Positions 4,921 to 52,564 of a DNA stretch of 64,000 nt are shown here, in pieces. The DNA is taken from the NCBI GenBank assembly GCA_947503755.1, contig CANNFC010000001.1, positions 8,808 through 72,807 on the forward strand, read 5' to 3'. The stretch's first letter is position 1; every line of letters begins with the position of its first letter. Position numbers and translations under genes: made by a program. The notes under the pieces are model-generated. The model made no database searches, was not told where the DNA came from, and worked only from the letters and a program-made list of their open reading frames with translations. This DNA is from Rickettsiales bacterium. GTDB lineage: Bacteria; Pseudomonadota; Alphaproteobacteria; Rickettsiales; UBA1997.

Positions 4921-5165
4921 GGTTTTTTTCTGTGCAGTTCGAGATTAGATCGAGTGCGATCTGCATCGCTCCCCCTGTGCAGTTCTCGATCTAAATCGCC
5001 CCCTCTTTTACGGGAGGGCAAGAGCTACGAAGTAGCTCTGGGAGGGGTAAATACTATTAACACAACTCGAATTTGAGTTTGTGATGTAGGTCTTCTGACC
5101 CCCCCACCGAAATTGCTATGCAATTTCGACCCCCTCCCGTAAAGCGGGAGGGTGATTAGATCGAG
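4921..5165. repeat. Palindromic repeat cluster A: fragments plus one full R2-type element at 4985-5165
   Basis: Termini are ctcgatctaaatcgccccctc... and ...ccctcccgtaaagcgggagggtgattagatcgag. The internal sequence matches 11098-11255 in the opposite orientation. There is a GC-rich 8-bp stem-loop (ccctcccg taaag cgggaggg). Confidence 0.85.
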
Positions 5166-5242
5166 CACAATCTGAATTGCTTCCCATTTTTTTTGAGTGG
5201 GAGAAGAAGATAGATATAAAATTGATTTTAATGTCATAGCCA

Positions 5243-7162
5243 CTACACAATAACAACTCTCTTTTGCTCAAAATGTTGGTATAAATTGTGGATTATCTCA
5301 ACATTTAAGCAGGCATCTTGTGCAAAAATTTGGCATTCTTTTAAGTGATCAGAATATAAAACAATTTCTGCAAGAGTTTGGTTGTTCATTTGCTCTTCGC
5401 CCAAAATAATTAGGGCTTGGCGGTTATTGCCTTTAAGGTAGGTTATGCCTTTACCTAAATTATGCAAATCACGATATTGATAATTTAAGCCATAGCCATA
5501 GCTACATGCAATTTCGGCAAAAATTTCTTCTTTTGTGGCAATGCTTTTATTCATCAATTTACGATCGATTGCCGACTCGGTGAGTTCTAAAACCTTAAAA
5601 CCATTATCAACCGATTTATATTTTTCGCCAGCACGTCGAATTCTCTCAATGGTAATATTTGAAATAACAGGCTCTAGATTGTTATTTTTGCAAAATTTAA
5701 AAGCCTCTTTTTTGTTATCAATTTTTTCGGGCAGTTGCACTAAAATAAACCTTCGCCCGCCGACTTCCGCCTCTTTATCTGCCAAAAGCCCATCTTTTGC
5801 TTGTTTATCAATTTCTTCTTGATTGAGTTCCATAACCGCTTGCCCTGTGGTGCCACTACCTGCAAAAAAATCAAGAATGAGATCGTTTGGTGCGGTAGAG
5901 ATTTGGAGAAGGTGTTTTATGAGTGAGACAGGTTTGGGGTTGGTAAATAAGTCCTTATTTGTATTAAATAACTTTCGCAACTCAAATGTCGCACTAGTAG
6001 AATCACCAACAAAATCCAAAATATTAGATATTGATATCTCGTTGTTCGATTTAGAGTATTGAGGAATGCCTTTTGAATTAAAAAAAATCTCATTATACTG
6101 CTGACCTTTTTTATCAAACGCCTCTTTCCCTGAGAGTAAAGTGTTAATGATGTTAGGTGAAGACCATTCCGCACTTAACTCACAATCATTTTTCAATAAT
6201 CCATTTTCAAAAATCATTTCTTTTGAGATAATTTCAATTGGTTCAGATTGTCCACCTATAGTTCCAGAAAAAATTTCATTATTTATACCTTCAATTCTAA
6301 TACCGCTAGGAAAAACAATGTTAAATTTTCTGTGCTTTACCTTTGTAATCCTTGAAGACACTTGCTTTACTTCATCAAGTTCTAGCTTGAATTTTGCAAT
6401 ATCTTTATTTTTAGAATACACAAAAATATATTCTTTTAAATCCTTAATTGCTCCATAATTAATTGCTGAATTTTGCACATGAATAAAACACCCCACAAAC
6501 TCCTCCTCGCCAAATATCTCATTCATAATTTGCCTTAAGTGGTGAACTTCGTTATCATCGATGCTTACAAAAATAACACCATCTTCTCGCAACAGCTCCC
6601 TTGCCAAAACAAGCCTTGGATACATAAACGAAAGCCAATTTGAGTGCTTTCTCCCTGTGTTTTTTTCTTTTGCATTTTGCCCCGAAATATCTTGCCCATC
6701 TTCAATTTGCCCGCTTTCAAGCAAATAATCAAGCTCGCTTGTGGCATAATTATCGGGGTAGATAAACTCGTGTTGAGTGTTATATGGAGGGTCAATATAA
6801 ATACACTTAACCTTGTTTTTATAAGATGGCACCAACAGTTTTAAAACTTGCAAATTATCGCCTTCGATAATTAAATTTTGTGTTGTTTTAAAATTTTTAC
6901 TGCGTTCTTCGTCAAATTTTAATGCAAGTTTTATCTCGCTTTGTTTAAATGACAAACCTTTTGCTTTTTGCTTGCCTGCCCAGCTAAAACAAAACGGCTC
7001 TTGCTTTTCGGTTGTATAGCCAGTGACAAAATTTTCAAGCTCGGCTTTAATTAAATTTCCGTCTTTATCAAATAAATTTGGCAATAGTTTTTTTAACTCT
7101 GCCATTTTGTCATGGTGCAGACTTTGCAAACCTTCGTTAAATTTGATAGTTTTTTCATTCAT
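5243..7162 (-). CDS. mod: Type III restriction-modification methyltransferase (Mod), beta-class N6-adenine MTase
   Basis: Motif IV YIDPPYNT near residue 124 precedes motif I DFFAGSGTTGQA near residue 433, which is the beta-class order with a variable region between them. It starts 15 nt downstream of the res gene on the same strand. Confidence 0.85.
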   Translation of the reverse strand: MNEKTIKFNEGLQSLHHDKMAELKKLLPNLFDKDGNLIKAELENFVTGYTTEKQEPFCFSWAGKQKAKGLSFKQSEIKLALKFDEERSKNFKTTQNLIIEGDNLQVLKLLVPSYKNKVKCIYIDPPYNTQHEFIYPDNYATSELDYLLESGQIEDGQDISGQNAKEKNTGRKHSNWLSFMYPRLVLARELLREDGVIFVSIDDNEVHHLRQIMNEIFGEEEFVGCFIHVQNSAINYGAIKDLKEYIFVYSKNKDIAKFKLELDEVKQVSSRITKVKHRKFNIVFPSGIRIEGINNEIFSGTIGGQSEPIEIISKEMIFENGLLKNDCELSAEWSSPNIINTLLSGKEAFDKKGQQYNEIFFNSKGIPQYSKSNNEISISNILDFVGDSTSATFELRKLFNTNKDLFTNPKPVSLIKHLLQISTAPNDLILDFFAGSGTTGQAVMELNQEEIDKQAKDGLLADKEAEVGGRRFILVQLPEKIDNKKEAFKFCKNNNLEPVISNITIERIRRAGEKYKSVDNGFKVLELTESAIDRKLMNKSIATKEEIFAEIACSYGYGLNYQYRDLHNLGKGITYLKGNNRQALIILGEEQMNNQTLAEIVLYSDHLKECQIFAQDACLNVEIIHNLYQHFEQKRVVIV

Positions 7163-10920: not shown

Positions 10921-11305
10921 AATCTAAACTTCGATCTAAATTCCCCTTTTTTAGAAGGGGTGGCGACCGAAGGTCGACGGGGTAGTGTCGGCAACACACG
11001 GTAGGATCTTTTCGAAAAGACATCGGCGATCGGGCTCCCAACACTACCTTGGTCTTTTTGCATAAGTTATACCATTTACACAAATAAATATCGCATTTCG
11101 ATCTAAATCACCCTACCCATTGCAAAGCAATTTCGGGGAGGGGTAAGAAAAGCACATCACAACATCGATTTTGCATAATGATTTTTTTTAACCACCCACG
11201 AAGCTAACAAGCTAGCTCCTGCTCCCCCGTAAAGCGGGGGAGCGATTAGATCGAGGTAATATTATCGCCCCAGAATAATGCGGTATTTATTAGTGAAAAT
11301 GGTAT
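10921..11305. repeat. Palindromic repeat cluster B: a truncated R1 element (about 10931-11066) interrupted by an R2 element with outer inverted termini (11069-11305)
   Basis: The R1 left end is tcgatctaaattccccttttttagaaggggtgg. The R2 core at 11098-11255 matches 4985-5165 inverted. The outer termini ataccatttacacaaataaata / tatttattagtgaaaatggtat match those of the 41866-42159 element. Confidence 0.85.
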
Positions 11306-24424: not shown

Positions 24425-24498
24425 AGATATTGTGAGAACTTTGTTATAAAATAGTTTATAAAATTTTAAATAATAAAAATTAATTAAGCAAGCAGCTC

Positions 24499-24714
24499 TC
24501 GATCTAAATTCCCCTTCTTGTAGAAGGGGTGGCACGAAGTGCCGGGGTAGTGTCGGCAACACACGGTAAGATCTTTCTTCGAAAAAACATCTGCGATCGT
24601 CTCACAAAACTTCCCCTTCTACAAGAAGGGGAATTCTGACCGAGAAATGCTTGCCGACATTGCCTCGACACTTCGTTCTGCTCTGCACCAGAAGAGGGGA
24701 AATTTAGATCGAAG
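24499..24714. repeat. Palindromic repeat cluster C (R1-type element)
   Basis: 24499-24568 is identical over 70 nt to 41901-41970. The right end is ggggaaatttagatcgaag. Confidence 0.9.
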
Positions 24715-24737
24715 TTTGGTTTACACACAAGATTTTA

Positions 24738-38108: not shown

Positions 38109-38410
38109 ATTCCCCTTCTGTGGCGGGCGAAGCGATGGAGGGGTAGTGTTTGCAAGCAAAACTCGGTCATAATTTCCTGCACTAATGAAGGGGTAGCACG
38201 AAGTGCGGGGGCAGGGTCGGCAAGCAAAACTCGGTCAGAATTCCCCTTTTTTAGAAGGGGTGGATTTTTTTGCGACAGCAAAAAAAGACCAAGGTAGTGT
38301 CGGCAAGCCACCTTAGGATCTTCCTCGAAAAAACATCGGCGATCGTCTCCCAACAATACCCCGCACCAATTCGCAGCCACCCCTTCGTTAGTGCAGGGAA
38401 TTGAGATCGA
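38106..38410. repeat. Palindromic repeat cluster D: nested or composite R1-type elements that fill the whole intergenic gap
   Basis: Variant ends aatttcctgcactaatgaagggg / ccccttcgttagtgcagggaattgagatc enclose a second element. 38239-38300 is a perfect 62-nt inverted match to 42009-42070. Confidence 0.9.
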
Positions 38411-38416
38411 TTAAAA

Positions 38417-41400
38417 TTAAATATTCTCTACCGTTGAGATTTCTTCTTCGGTGAGTTGATACAGGGCATAAACCATTTCGTCGATTTTGGCATCTGTTTG
38501 GTTGAAAGTGAGTTGCAATTTTTTGACTTCGGCTTGCTTTTCTTTTAATCGAGCAAGCCACTTTTCTTCTTGTTTGGCAGTGAGATTTATTTTTTGTAAA
38601 GTGATGGCTTGCAAAAACTCTCCCCAAGAAAGTTCGCTCCACCTAGCAAGCTGTTTATTGATGTTTATTGTGGCAAATTCTCCTGTAAGTAATTCAAAAA
38701 ATTGAGTGTTAATAAAATCAATTTGGCTGTTAATTTGCATCATCAACTCAACTTTTTGAACAATTTCGGTTTGTTGTTTTTGGCTTGCAATGATGATTGG
38801 TATTTTGCACAGCGGTTCAATATCTAGCTGATAGTTTGAGCCTTGCATTTTACCTTTATTTTTTAAATAAAAAGCGACAAGTTTTGAGTTTAAAACCCCA
38901 GTAAGATATTTTAGGTTTATATCGTTTGGTTTGACGATATTAAAAGTTCTGTCAACATAAGAATCAAAATCAATATAACTAAAACGAGGTCTTAATGTTG
39001 ATTTTCTAACGACTAATATTTTTTTCCCTAAAAATATTATTTCTTTTCTAGCACAATGTAAACCATAAGGCTTATTCATTGAGGTTATAATTTTTTTAAA
39101 TTTATCTAAATGTTTTTTGATGTTTGGATAATTGTTAATTTTATTTGGTTTTTTAAAGCTGGAATTTGTATAAATTGCCCATCTAGTGTTTTTATTATTG
39201 GCAAAATATCTGTCAATTTCTTTGGTGGTATATTCTGGTTTGATAATTTCAAGCTCTTGTGTAGTTAAGTTTAAAGCATCTTTTTCTGCTGTGGTGATGC
39301 TAAAAATTCCGTCGCCAATTTTAAAATCTTTACCAAGAATCTTTTTACTTTTTTTATTAACAATATCTTGCGAATAATCTATTGTGCTAAAAATATCATC
39401 TTTTTTCAATCTATAGTTACCTACTTTTTCGAGTTTATCAAAAAGTGGTTTTAAATTATCACTTACAAAGTGAATGGTTTTATCAAGTAAATCAGCGGTT
39501 GCAAGCTCTATTTTTTCAAAAGTGCTTTTTGTGAGGCTTTCAGAAATTGCCACTTGCTTTTGGGTAAATAATTTTTCGGTTGTGTTATTTAGTTTGCAAT
39601 ACTCTACAATATGTGTGGCGGTTGGTGTTTTTTGCAAGCAAAATATCATAGTTTGAATTTCGGCGGTTTTAAAAACTTTGTTATCGTTAAAATCAACATA
39701 CGAAATCAGTGTTGCTTCTTGCAAAATTTTGTTACGAGTTTTTGAGGCTCCGTGGTTGGTAAGTAAGCTGTTTGGGGCAATATAAGATAAGTAGCAGTTT
39801 TTGTTTAATAAATCAAGCCCAAGACAAGCAAAAAATTGCCAAAAATCCATTTTGCCTTGATAATATTGCGAAGCAAAAGGAGGCTTGTTTTGTTGTGGCG
39901 AATGTTTGGTTGATTTATACTTTTTATTAGCAGGGTTTAGTGGCTCAAAAATTTCTCGGTGCTTGTCTTCTTTAATGTAGGGCGGGTTGCCAATAATAAC
40001 ATCAAATTTAAAATTAAATTCTTTTTGCCAATCAAATGCTAGCGACTTGCTAAATATATTAGCTTGCCTTTCTTTGTAAATATCGCCAATCATGTCGTTG
40101 GCGGTGCCTGTTAATTCGTAAATAACTTTGCCTTCGTATTCGTCATATCGACCAGCGATGTTTTCATCTTCTATTAAACTGTTGCCGATTTTGATGTTAT
40201 CGTTGAGATTTAATAGTTTTTCTTTGTGATGGGCGGTTTTTAGCCACAGTGAAAGCTTGGTAATTTCAACCGAATTTGGGTTGATGTCGACTCCATAAAT
40301 ATTATTTTGTAAAATAAACTGATGATGATTGCTGATGCCTAATTTTCTGGCTTCGTTGGTTAAAAAATCAAAAACCTCTACTAAAAAAGCTCCACTTCCG
40401 CAAGCGGGATCGAGCACTTTTATAGAGAGCAAAGCTTTTTTATATTCTTCTAAAAACTTTGTTGAACCTTCGTAAAAAATTGTGGCAATTTGTGTTTTTT
40501 TGTCGTTTAGCCATTTGCCAATTGTTTGACTTACGATATATTTGGTAACATAAGAAGGGGTGTAGTAGACTCCAAATTTTTCTTGCTCGTTTTTTTCTGT
40601 TGTGGCAAAGTTTATGTCTTCTTGGGCTTCGTTTTGTAGATCGGAAATTGATTTTTCAAAAATATGCCCCAAAATTTCAACATCAAGATCGCTTCTAAAT
40701 GCATAATCGATAACAAACAACAACTTATCAATTTCTTCATCTTCAATGCAAAGCTCATCAAGAAATTTATCTTCTTTAAATAGCCCGCCGTTAAATGCTG
40801 GCACTTGCGGATTGCTTTTATTGTTGCCAATATTAAGAGAACGAAAAATATCTTTTAGATGATTATATTTAGAGCCATAAACCTGCTCTTTAACAAATTT
40901 ACTTAATGTATTGTGCGGTATTAGGCCCCTTTCTTGGCAAAATACAATAAAAATTATTCTTCTTAACAGTTTATCTGATGCATAAAGGCAAAAACCTTTG
41001 CGAGATTGTAATTGATTAACCTCAATTAAATGCTGTTTTAACCTTGTTCGATTGTGTTTGTATAAATTATAAAAATCTTCTTGAATTCTTTCTTTTTCTT
41101 CTTCGCGATCAACAATAATTTTATGCACCGGCGATTGTTGATTTTGCTTGGTAAACAGCCTGTCAAAAGATAGTAAAAAGTGGAATTCTTTTAGTTTGTT
41201 GGCATTTTTGGCAAGCTCGGTAATAAAAAACGAGTGATATTTGCTAGAGTCAGATGCCTTATAAAGCCGAATTTCGGCAAAGTTGCTCACAATTACCCAT
41301 TCGCACTTGCCACCAACTTTTGGGGCATATAAAAAACCCTGCTCAATGGGAGTGATGGCAAGGCCTTTGCGGTTTTGATTTTTATCAAGATTAACATTAC

Positions 41401-41767
41401 TTGCTTTCAGCTCAATTACTGCTCGAATATCGCCTGCTTTGATATTGCTTGTGGTGATATCTTGATTTTGGTAGCTTTGCAAATTAAAGCCCAAAATGCC
41501 ATCTGGTCTTCTGCCGTCGTTGGTGCCAGATTCCCACCATAAAGTATTGTGTTGATTGCCTGTTTCGCCTTGATAACCAAGGATTTTAACAAAAAAATCT
41601 TGCAAAAAATTGTGTTGATGCTGTATTTCGTTTTCTATGCCACAAGAATTTTCGCAGGCATTTTGCCATCTTGCTAAAATATTGTTTTGGATGTTTGAAA
41701 TATCGTCATCGGAGAGCTGGTGATAACTAGTAACATCGAGTGATTTTTGATTAAAGAGGCTGTTCAT
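38417..41767 (-). CDS. Single-polypeptide Type IIG/IIL restriction-modification enzyme (N-terminal nuclease, gamma-class N6-adenine MTase, C-terminal specificity region)
   Basis: The 1116-aa protein has N-terminal RRPDGILGF...AVIELKAS (PD...ExK). Motif I VLDPACGSGAFL precedes motif IV IIGNPPYI. The C-terminal tail ALYQLTEEEISTVE is typical of this enzyme class. Confidence 0.8.
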   Translation of the reverse strand: MNSLFNQKSLDVTSYHQLSDDDISNIQNNILARWQNACENSCGIENEIQHQHNFLQDFFVKILGYQGETGNQHNTLWWESGTNDGRRPDGILGFNLQSYQNQDITTSNIKAGDIRAVIELKASNVNLDKNQNRKGLAITPIEQGFLYAPKVGGKCEWVIVSNFAEIRLYKASDSSKYHSFFITELAKNANKLKEFHFLLSFDRLFTKQNQQSPVHKIIVDREEEKERIQEDFYNLYKHNRTRLKQHLIEVNQLQSRKGFCLYASDKLLRRIIFIVFCQERGLIPHNTLSKFVKEQVYGSKYNHLKDIFRSLNIGNNKSNPQVPAFNGGLFKEDKFLDELCIEDEEIDKLLFVIDYAFRSDLDVEILGHIFEKSISDLQNEAQEDINFATTEKNEQEKFGVYYTPSYVTKYIVSQTIGKWLNDKKTQIATIFYEGSTKFLEEYKKALLSIKVLDPACGSGAFLVEVFDFLTNEARKLGISNHHQFILQNNIYGVDINPNSVEITKLSLWLKTAHHKEKLLNLNDNIKIGNSLIEDENIAGRYDEYEGKVIYELTGTANDMIGDIYKERQANIFSKSLAFDWQKEFNFKFDVIIGNPPYIKEDKHREIFEPLNPANKKYKSTKHSPQQNKPPFASQYYQGKMDFWQFFACLGLDLLNKNCYLSYIAPNSLLTNHGASKTRNKILQEATLISYVDFNDNKVFKTAEIQTMIFCLQKTPTATHIVEYCKLNNTTEKLFTQKQVAISESLTKSTFEKIELATADLLDKTIHFVSDNLKPLFDKLEKVGNYRLKKDDIFSTIDYSQDIVNKKSKKILGKDFKIGDGIFSITTAEKDALNLTTQELEIIKPEYTTKEIDRYFANNKNTRWAIYTNSSFKKPNKINNYPNIKKHLDKFKKIITSMNKPYGLHCARKEIIFLGKKILVVRKSTLRPRFSYIDFDSYVDRTFNIVKPNDINLKYLTGVLNSKLVAFYLKNKGKMQGSNYQLDIEPLCKIPIIIASQKQQTEIVQKVELMMQINSQIDFINTQFFELLTGEFATININKQLARWSELSWGEFLQAITLQKINLTAKQEEKWLARLKEKQAEVKKLQLTFNQTDAKIDEMVYALYQLTEEEISTVENI

Positions 41768-41865
41768 TTTACTATTTTAAAGCTGTTTTTTAAAAAAAAT
41801 GATTTTATAGCTGGCTACTTAAAAATCTAGATTTATTTTGGTTGAATGAAAGATGGTATAAACTT

Positions 41866-42159
41866 CGATATAATACCATTTACATAAATAAATACCACAC
41901 TTCGATCTAAATTCCCCTTCTTGTAGAAGGGGTGGCACGAAGTGCCGGGGTAGTGTCGGCAACACACGGTAGAATCTTCTTCGAAAACACATCGGCGATC
42001 GTCTTCCAACACTACCTTGGTCTTTTTTTGCTGTCGCAAAAAAATCCACCCCTTCTAAAAAAGGGGAATTTTGCACCGCATTCGATCTAAATTTCTCTTC
42101 CAGGGGATGGGGAATTTAGATCGAAGTGTGGTATTTATTTATGTAAATGGTATTATATC
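41866..42159. mobile_element. MITE-like non-autonomous element (294 bp) with perfect 51-bp terminal inverted repeats; repeat cluster E
   Basis: 41866-41916 is the exact reverse complement of 42109-42159 (gatataataccatttacataaataaataccacacttcgatctaaattcccc). The interior is a full R1 module plus a mini-palindrome. It encodes no protein. Confidence 0.85.
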
Positions 42160-42163
42160 ATCT

Positions 42164-42511
42164 TTAAAAAAAGTTTTTGTGGTGTCGAAAAGAAAAAGGC
42201 GAAAATTCAACAAAATCGAATCTTCGTAACAAGTCAGATAAATGAAGGTTTTTGCCTACAAAATAATCGGCGGTAGATTTTATGCGATTAATTTGTTTGA
42301 CAAGCAATATTTGTTCGATGTTGTGTTGTTTAGATCTTGCTTTGACCTCGATAAAAACTAGTTGCTTTTGGTGTAAAGCGATGATGTCTATTTCGCCAGC
42401 AAAACATTTATAGCGGTTGGCTAAAATTTTATAGCCTTGGCAAAATAGCAAAAAAAGACAAATTTTTTCGGCAATAATGCCAAATTTATAGCTATTTTTT
42501 TTCTTGTTCAT
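42164..42511 (-). CDS. yraN: YraN-family (UPF0102) endonuclease-like protein
   Basis: The 115-aa protein has GEIDIIA...LVFIEVKAR, the D...E.K core of the family. Confidence 0.8.
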   Translation of the reverse strand: MNKKKNSYKFGIIAEKICLFLLFCQGYKILANRYKCFAGEIDIIALHQKQLVFIEVKARSKQHNIEQILLVKQINRIKSTADYFVGKNLHLSDLLRRFDFVEFSPFSFRHHKNFF

Positions 42512-46115: not shown

Positions 46116-46532
46116 TCATTGTATAAAACAACATTCTTCTTGTTGCATAGGTTGTCCATCAGGTGATTGAAGATTTGTTTGCGGAGAAAGCGGTGTTATT
46201 CCCATTTCATTTTTTATTGCATTTATTAAATTCTCAACTTGAAATTGAGCACCAGCATTTTTAGTTGGATCTGAAGGTTTACTTATGTTTAAAAACTTTT
46301 TTGTATCTAATTTTAATTTTTCAATTGTTTTTGTCGTTTGTGTAGAATCGCTATAAGTTGGACCTAATGAATCTCTCAATGTATCCGTCCAACTAGTAGA
46401 AGGTTGAAAAAGCCGTTGACTTTCTTCTAGAACATACAAATATTGTTCGATAAATTTAGGTTTTATTGCTTTTATTTTATTTAATGATTCTAAAATACTG
46501 TTTATAGATTCTTCTTGTGTTGTTGTAGGCAT
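46116..46532 (-). CDS. Orphan hypothetical protein ending in a CaaX-like box (CCFIQ)
   Basis: The ORF is 138 aa from the ATG at 46532 (the ORF-track TTG extension is discounted). I recognised no motif. The C-terminus is ...QQEECCFIQ followed by a stop. Confidence 0.5.
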   Translation of the reverse strand: MPTTTQEESINSILESLNKIKAIKPKFIEQYLYVLEESQRLFQPSTSWTDTLRDSLGPTYSDSTQTTKTIEKLKLDTKKFLNISKPSDPTKNAGAQFQVENLINAIKNEMGITPLSPQTNLQSPDGQPMQQEECCFIQ

Positions 46533-46694
46533 ATAAATTTTGGTTGTTTTTAATATAAAAAGAAATAGTCTTTTAAAATATTTATAAAACAAAATACAAT
46601 TTTATCTAAAAAACACAAAATATGAAATTGCTTTATGAAATTTATTTTTTCATTTATAATTTTAAATTTCAAGAATTATTGTAGTTTTAGCGAA

Positions 46695-52278: not shown

Positions 52279-52564
52279 ATAACATTTCCACTAATTAAAA
52301 CCACACTTCTATCTAAATTCCCCATCCCGTGGAAGGGAAATTTAGATAGAAGTGTGGTGCAAAATTCCCCTTTTTTAGAAAAGGGGTGGCGACCGAAGGT
52401 CGACGGGGTAGTGTCGGCAAGCCACGGTAGGAATTTGACTTGAATTAGCATTTTTCCTTGTTTCACAACACTGCCTTGGTCTTTTTTGCTATCGCAAAAA
52501 AGACACCCCTTCTAAAAAAGGGGAATTTAGATCGAAGTGTGATTTTAATTAGTGGAAATGGTAT
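52279..52564. repeat. Palindromic repeat cluster F: a MITE-like element with 45-bp terminal inverted repeats (42/45 match)
   Basis: The left terminus ataacatttccactaattaaaaccacacttctatctaaattcccc matches the reverse complement of 52520-52564. It contains a mini-palindrome (52301-52357) and an R1 module. Confidence 0.85.

Follow-up and report, generated by a model that had tools for sequence, protein, structure and literature searches.

The element studied here is very probably a non-autonomous cut-and-paste transposon (MITE) whose ends are those of an IS630-family IS, whose interior is built of hairpin modules and whose arms have been perfected in place. We observed that it shares its termini with an IS present in related metagenomic contigs, that the triplets on the two sides of family members match far more often than not, and that members of the family are present in some strains and absent from others. 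The two arms of the studied copy also show a compensated change. The family is an ordinary one with an identifiable IS630-type partner, and IS/MITE pairs of this type are already known. Its less usual features are a 3-bp T-W-A (TWA) target duplication and the perfection of the arms in place.

Results

The locus and the anatomy of the element

By the window we mean the whole 64-kb stretch of DNA analysed, densely coding bacterial DNA with 34% GC. The element lies in the 396-bp gap between two minus-strand genes, a UPF0102/YraN gene (yraN) lying upstream of it, with its stop codon at 42164-42166, and a gene for an MmeI/Eco57I-type restriction-modification protein of 1116 aa starting at 41767. 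The SdhA encoded in the window is of the proteobacterial 'forward' type, the window proteins have identical or near-identical counterparts labelled 'Proteobacteria bacterium' MAG, and the related contigs come from freshwater metagenome samples. The host, uncultured and living in fresh water, appears to be an alphaproteobacterium similar to Rickettsiales or Pelagibacterales. Related contigs are designated by L-numbers. A degenerate terminus pattern, scanned against the JGI metagenomes, gave 110 stretches, some of them syntenic with the window at 96-100% identity. The element occurs in three independent assemblies (the window, L001 and L002) and is therefore no assembly artefact.

The features of the element and of its relatives in the window are collected in Table 1. 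A first description, made from the letters alone (the sequence-only reading), had reported a 294-bp element with perfect 51-bp inverted repeats. The repeats are real, with 41867-41917 and 42109-42159 pairing at 51 of 51 positions, but the left arm had been placed at 41866-41916, where only 16 of 51 positions pair. The palindromic unit measures 293 bp and the element proper 279 bp. Nor are the 51 bp transposon termini, as had been assumed: the terminus accounts for no more than about 29 bp of each arm, which also holds 7 bp of flank plus duplication and some 15 bp of a hairpin module. With mismatches allowed, the inverted repeat reaches 63 nt at 92%. If the arms are read as 45 bp (41873-41917 and 42109-42153), TATA indeed stands on both sides, at 41869-41872 and 42154-42157; this TATA is itself palindromic and part of the same inverted repeat, and its interpretation as a TA-type target duplication has to give way to the 3-bp duplication described below.

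Table 1. Coordinates of the element, its parts and its relatives in the window
Feature	Positions	Strand	Remarks
Element proper, non-autonomous transposon (MITE), 279 bp	41874..42152		TACCATTT to AAATGGTA; terminus logo (conservation from TWA+TACC) and pair analysis
Left target-site triplet TAA	41871..41873		Family-wide T-W-A duplication
Right target-site triplet TTA	42153..42155		Inverted-repeat partner of left TAA; no direct-repeat match
Left terminal inverted repeat TACCATTTACATAAATAAATACCACACTT	41874..41902	+	27/29 to both ends of the L129 IS; also matches the L107 left end; putative transposase-binding end
Right terminal inverted repeat	42124..42152	-	Exact reverse complement of the left one
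Perfect 51-bp repeat, left arm	41867..41917		7 bp flank and duplication, 29-bp terminus, ~15 bp internal module
Perfect 51-bp repeat, right arm	42109..42159		Ends 4 nt short of the yraN stop codon (42164-42166)
Internal module TTCGATCTAAATT and hairpin CCCCTTCT-TGTA-GAAGGGG	41901..41932	+	Also present outside such elements
Small hairpin GGCAC-GAA-GTGCC	41934..41946	+	
Internal module GGTAGTGTCGGCAAC...CCAACACTACC, long-range stem	41949..42016	+	Recurs in clusters B, C, D, F (family D2)
A/T hairpin TTTTTTTGC-TGTC-GCAAAAAAA	42023..42044		
Intrinsic-terminator-like hairpin CCCCTTTTTTAGAAGGGG then TGGATTTTTT	42039..42066	-	Same direction as upstream yraN
45-bp palindromic module TTCGATCTAAATT...AATTTAGATCGAA	42081..42125		Source of the inner part of the right arm
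Family member B, 235 bp	11070..11304		Flanks TTA and TTA; extra element beside B in some strains
Family member F, 284 bp	52280..52563		Flanks TAA and TAA; arms 42/45; in every strain recovered for the site
Cluster C, internal-module array without transposon termini	24498..24720		Holds the 70-mer identical to 41902-41971

The 293-bp unit folds end to end, as had been proposed, with -85.8 kcal/mol and z = -16.4 as DNA and z = -16.3 as RNA; an equally good fold was found in 0 of 200 shuffles. The lack of coding capacity was likewise borne out, the element holding no ORF of at least 100 aa and a longest stop-free stretch of 83 codons. The window contains the terminus motif 4 times and the core motif 9 times, where 0 are expected.

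An outer inverted pair, AAAGATGGTATAA / TTATATCATCTTT, surrounds the element at window positions 41849-41861 and 42157-42169 and looks like degenerate transposon ends. The copy of this pair beside yraN is found in all strains, even those devoid of the element, and may have been left behind by an older insertion.

A family of MITEs with an IS630-family partner

Approximately 1 Mb of related contigs contains 257 termini, which form 97 head-to-head pairs of 48-533 bp, 94-95 of them non-redundant, plus two longer pairs. Sizes form a series: pairs of 48-55 bp are two termini only, those of ~101 bp add one hairpin, and those of 160-533 bp carry more modules. None of 93 pairs falls within an ORF of at least 120 aa, all being intergenic. 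Three copies lie within the window, and what had been said of two of them stands: the arms of F match at 42 of 45 positions, and the outer termini recur in B, at 11069 and 11305. The family presents the traits by which MITEs are recognised, being short and non-coding, with terminal inverted repeats, a target duplication, many copies, a cognate autonomous element and polymorphism between strains, although the triplets TAA/TTA make the studied copy an imperfect fit to the duplication. In a collection of species-representative genomes, the core motif TCGATCTAAATTCCCC, a 16-mer, gave 54 matches, essentially all of them due to chance and leaving only similarities of 21-38 nt; the species of this lineage is apparently absent from that collection.

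A tblastn search found no transposase within the 64-kb window, in agreement with the sequence-only reading, which had advised looking elsewhere for an autonomous element with the same terminus. Such elements exist in the related contigs, where three copies of 1.11-1.13 kb (L129 181-1292, L107 108-1217 and L197 69-1200) have these ends and ORFs matching HTH_32/HTH_33 and DDE_3 of Pfam. The L129 copy, of 1112 bp, has ends TACCATTTCCATAAATAAATAC..., each of which matches the studied element at 27 of 29 positions. Its N-terminal HTH_32/HTH_33 and C-terminal DDE_3 parts are in two frames that overlap at an A8 run, and against NF033545 ('IS630 family transposase', cut-off 100) the fused protein reaches 220.6 bits. 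The L107 copy, 81% identical to it in nucleotides, has the identical A8 junction; the L197 copy, of 1132 bp, has an A9 run and is flanked by TTA/TTA. These IS copies come from short metagenomic contigs, and their assignment to the same population is made via common flanking repeat modules and samples only. A truncated IS copy was also found on a 297-kb contig that bears several MITEs of the family.

The closest full-length relatives of the transposase among the matches listed are Wolbachia IS630-family proteins with 44-49% identity. Since most of the 120 homologues listed are DDE_3-only proteins of ~180-200 aa, a split transposase would be the usual state in this clade. L201, from a 'Pelagibacterales bacterium' MAG, and L124, a second and more distant relative, also contain IS630-type elements, with variant termini.

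Several observations on these elements deserve mention. The frame split at an A8/A9 run recurs at L129 742-749, in L107, at L197 652-660 and at L201 1566-1573, in copies down to 81% nucleotide identity, and this constancy suggests programmed frameshifting or transcriptional slippage. At L192 23-922, a gene for an IS4/IS5-type transposase (DDE_Tnp_1) directly adjoins an IS630-type copy, which suggests that ISs nest in this population. We also considered as a possible autonomous element a 1.6-kb terminus pair in L133, and discarded it as it contains a pilin-like gene and not a transposase. The termini of this segment (4946-6554) are correctly inverted and its TAA/TAA triplets match, and the 356-aa protein encoded between them bears the prepilin-type N-terminal methylation motif PF07963. 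The segment could be cargo flanked by MITEs in a composite-like arrangement, or else two partial elements with no relation to each other.

Target duplication

In a logo of 237 distinct termini, conservation starts with T(-2), W(-1) and A(0) before TACCATTT, and there is no signal farther out. Paired flanks read TAA[TACC...GGTA]TAA in 31 pairs and TTA[...]TTA in 28, with 19 mixed pairs, so that the central base of the triplet is the same on both sides in 59 cases and different in 19 (p = 6.4e-6). The class of duplication is independent of the orientation of the interior. One copy that inserted in another repeat module is flanked by TCA...TCA. Within the window, B is TTA/TTA, F is TAA/TAA and the studied copy is TAA/TTA. 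Insertion at TA with duplication of TA, the hallmark of the IS630 family, is not what these flanks show: the unit is of 3 bp (TAA or TTA, each holding a TA). The RUP elements of pneumococcus are reported to duplicate TA. The duplications that the sequence-only reading suggested checking at all copies are consistent across the family, but they are of TWA and not of TA/TATA, and the studied copy departs from them.

These data are best read as a duplication of 3 bp, T-W-A, next to an element whose first bases are TACC. Two other placements of a TA duplication were rejected. Outside the TWA it would leave positions -4 and -3 conserved as TA, which they are not. Placed on the TA that opens TACC, it would call for an 8-bp target that is not palindromic and whose W bases are correlated, and would fit the empty site of L096 (see below) only via a 5-nt indel. 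A further parse, in which TA is duplicated inside a TAA target and one extra terminal base is added, would give the same sequences; of the pairs with heterotypic termini 11 fit it and 5 do not, a non-significant trend in its favour. The weak point of the duplication model lies in the IS itself, where only one of four full-length copies has matching triplets (L197, TTA/TTA), the others being TTA/TGA in L129 and TTA/TAA in both L107 and L201. Recombination between IS copies could explain these mismatches. An IS630-family lineage thus appears to duplicate a 3-bp TWA in place of the canonical TA.

Polymorphism between strains

Members of the family differ between strains, as the sequence-only reading had proposed to look for. 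A single TAA stands in L096 where L103 and L145 have TAA[291 bp]TAA. Beside copy B, L179, L180 and L116 carry an extra element of 156-300 bp with TTA...TTA flanks, which the window and L181 do not. The partner IS, the consistent duplications and this polymorphism therefore support the reading of the element as a MITE, and the pattern named beforehand as favouring an old, immobile repeat was not what we found. The shared IS630 termini, the duplications and the polymorphism likewise favour the earlier proposal of a MITE that would be moved in trans, its transposase being encoded elsewhere.

The studied copy has no clean empty-site allele, and strains without it also have a different restriction-modification cassette. 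At the yraN locus, homology between window-type and L003-type alleles stops exactly after GGTA-TAA, i.e. at the element end. We set aside L156 as a clean empty site for L162, because it has an extra 12-13 nt; it shows the absence of an element and not the length of a duplication.

Interiors vary in length at orthologous sites (101 vs 253 bp; 102 vs 291 bp; 175, 241 and 274 bp). In alignments, these changes correspond to the copy number of a 33-nt tandem repeat and to a 189-nt indel between 25-nt direct repeats. Transposition of modules was considered as their source, and the alignments point to slippage or recombination instead. One insertion site (L080 3007-3280, L095 5815-6055 and L096 9202-9376) has 3, 2 and 0 copies of the 33-nt repeat ATTATATTCAGTCGTGCTAGACGCAACGACATG.

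A 27-nt terminus-like segment, TACCATTTCCCATATTTATATAGCTTA, lies between adjacent elements and is each time delimited by TWA (L066 836-866, L116, L136 9660-9684 and L180 at about 1300), and neighbouring elements often have one TWA in common, e.g. L098 3390-3651 and 3653-4134. Sites beside existing copies thus seem to be preferred for insertion.

Age of the studied copy and origin of its perfect arms

Long perfect termini invite the idea that the copy inserted very recently and that their perfection reflects its youth. Such an insertion would account for arms pairing over their full length, for the 70 nt identical to cluster C, which no other sampled copy approaches within 4 mismatches, and for a family that is polymorphic among strains and so active on a within-species timescale. 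Yet the same site is occupied in all three assemblies (window, L001, L002), between which the flanking core genes differ by ~0.3-1%, and the best full-length paralogue in ~1 Mb has 82-87% identity, far from the near-identical one that a recent event would lead one to expect. The perfect repeat passes 7 bp beyond the transposon end, taking in the duplication and 4 more flank bases, and the triplets are TAA/TTA where a fresh insertion would give TAA/TAA. The strain differences 41917 C>T and 42109 G>A fall on repeat partners, so that the arms have undergone a compensated change. Being shared by strains and distant from its best paralogue, with a repeat that runs 7 bp past its end and arms that have changed in a compensated manner, the studied copy is not a recent insertion, and we regard such youth as quite unlikely. 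Of the two causes suggested by the sequence-only reading, very recent mobilisation fails for this copy and gene conversion fits better. We also considered whether the copy is less diverged than its flanks, and rejected this: between the window and L001, 4 of 396 positions of the element region differ, this 1% is the core background, and the 4% average is due to the restriction-modification gene.

The identity with cluster C is complete over the 70 nt, at 41902-41971 and not at 41901-41970 as first given, with 24499-24568 as its counterpart. Still, the near-identical relative announced in cluster C shares only an internal module with the studied copy, cluster C lacking the transposon termini. 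Cluster C is moreover identical in three strains, one of which is without the studied copy. The common 70-mer suggests conversion or common descent of the module.

How did the arms become perfect? The perfect terminal run has a median of 8 nt in the family, and at 44 nt inward plus 7 nt outward the studied copy is among the top 3 of 94. A repeat that continues through the duplication and into the flank is beyond what transposition can create, and the TAA/TTA 'mismatch' is precisely what perfect pairing demands. At 42158 the window alone has T where seven other assemblies have C, and this T adds 2 bp to the repeat. Correction of quasipalindromes by template switching is a well-established route of mutation. 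With one compensated pair, one extending change and the geometry of the duplication to go by, homogenisation of one arm by the other is the best account of the 51-bp perfection and may have acted through correction of this kind. Long perfect termini need not signal recent transposition; here they pass the transposon end and change in concert.

Interior modules and the terminator-like hairpin

The sequence inside the 29-bp termini is unrelated to the interior of the IS, and its modules are also found free of transposon termini, both in clusters C, D and G and as tandem arrays. One of them, the terminator-like hairpin at 42066-42039 on the minus strand, points in the direction of yraN and may be a Rho-independent terminator. 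In clusters D, F and G the same module lies downstream of genes that share its orientation, and the three window modules found in tandem gene contexts are all (3/3) in terminator orientation. A general bias in orientation (15 of 17 modules) was considered and dropped: most of these modules are between convergent genes, and tandem gene pairs give 3 vs 2.

Such data might be taken to describe a palindrome that does not move and that selection maintains for a structural or regulatory role, as an RNA element, terminator, insulator or cruciform; its likeness to a transposon would then be historical only. The strength of the fold (z about -16), the compensated arm change, and the hairpin with its T-run in the direction of yraN and its consistent orientation in the window are what such a palindrome would show. 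But correction at the level of DNA equally predicts the compensated change, and the orientation bias is non-significant once gene configuration is controlled for. The whole window gives no Rfam family at gathering or relaxed thresholds, the best sub-threshold score being 21.3 bits for a cut-off of 55, and interiors that differ so much between strains at orthologous sites argue against a conserved RNA. As termini, duplications and polymorphism show transposition at the level of the family, we consider selection on an immobile palindrome very unlikely.

It is extremely improbable that the element belongs to another palindromic class, either REP/REPIN moved by a RAYT tyrosine transposase or the Rickettsia-type palindromic elements (RPE): the window's GyrA is 76% identical to that of a 'Rickettsiales bacterium' MAG, the closest full-length transposase homologues among the matches listed are from Wolbachia and the free or tandemly arrayed hairpin modules resemble REP/BIME clusters, but the outer termini are IS630-family IS ends, REPINs have no target duplication such as the one seen here, and the absence of copies from ORFs (0/93) is unlike the in-frame insertion of RPE in protein-coding genes. 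Such a class could still hold for the internal modules.

Discussion

We propose that the ~29-bp ends TACCATTTACATAAATAAATACCACACTT function as the terminal inverted repeats of the 1.11-kb IS630-family IS. The transposase of this IS, with its HTH domains and DDE_3, would be read from two frames joined at the conserved A8/A9 run. Working in trans, it would attach to the ends, cut the element out and insert it again at T-W-A with duplication of the 3 bp, an activity that may persist to the present day. The stack of hairpin modules in the interior would grow or shrink when its repeats recombine or slip. The arms would be homogenised in place by template switching or gene conversion within the hairpin, i.e. 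by quasipalindrome correction.

Systems of this kind have precedents. In Orientia tsutsugamushi, the MITEs mISOt2a and mISOt2b have a cognate IS, ISOt2, of the IS630/Tc1-mariner family (PMC2575882). As here, the host is of Rickettsiales type, and the elements are short and non-coding, have the termini of an IS630-family IS, far outnumber that IS and are inferred to be mobilised in trans. The present family differs by its 3-bp TWA, its interior of unrelated hairpin modules and a transposase split at an A-run. The RUP element of pneumococcus, of 107 bp, has termini like those of IS630-Spn1 and is also a hairpin-forming, multi-copy MITE with IS630-type termini that pair together; the ~101-bp form of our family is of similar size. 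RUP is fixed in size, whereas our elements span 48-533 bp and have TWA flanks (PMC3049150). In modularity, the closer parallel is the BOX element of S. pneumoniae, an intergenic element of 67-637 bp with a variable number of interior modules and extensive secondary structure, but its termini resemble ISSpn2 and not IS630, and boxA, boxB and boxC are unrelated in sequence to the modules found here (PMC3049150).

For the mechanism, the model is the biochemically characterised ISY100 (ISTcSa) of Synechocystis, whose transposase alone performs excision and integration (PMC2170065). That transposase is of the same family and binds the terminal repeats with its N-terminal HTH. ISY100 has a single ORF and inserts nearly always at TA, which it duplicates (PMC2170065), in contrast with the TWA and the frameshifted ORF in our case. 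Duplications of TAA are known from the eukaryotic Fot elements, of the pogo superfamily in the IS630-Tc1-mariner group (PMC7386202). Fot elements share with ours the 3-bp TAA and the broad transposase group, but they are eukaryotic and have different transposases, and bacterial IS630 elements are classically described with TA (PMC7386202).

One might speculate that the interior modules, namely the TTCGATCTAAATT-hairpin units, the GGTAGTGTCGGCAA stem module and the terminator-like hairpin, are a separate, undescribed class of self-propagating intergenic elements that colonises both MITEs and bare DNA, and that they and the transposon ends might jointly form the boundaries at which recombination swaps restriction-modification cassettes. 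We hold this for unlikely. The idea of boundaries comes from the divergence of the MmeI-like gene, ~10% where the flanks have <1%, and from alleles that break at the element end.

The repeats of this lineage also affect the assemblies in which they are found. Many independent metagenome contigs, among them L005, L007 and L008 and those of several other loci, stop 11-40 nt from the yraN stop codon or at repeat clusters. The repeats break short-read assemblies of the lineage, many metagenomic assemblies being broken in this way, which is of importance for the quality of its MAGs.

The genes next to the element are themselves variable. Between the window and L001, the restriction-modification gene (window 38185-41784, between repeat clusters D and E) shows 343 differences, a divergence of ~10%, and the flanks on either side of it diverge by <1%. 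At the same place, L009 and, partly, L004, L006 and L010 have a 1007-aa MmeI-like gene with 34% amino-acid identity, and L003 may be without any MmeI-like gene there. What lies between the repeat clusters here is a hypervariable defence slot. A second sharp peak of divergence between the window and L001 coincides with a minus-strand ORF at 46116-46592 (window 46185-46584), with 58 differences per 400 nt and 0-3 in the adjacent bins.
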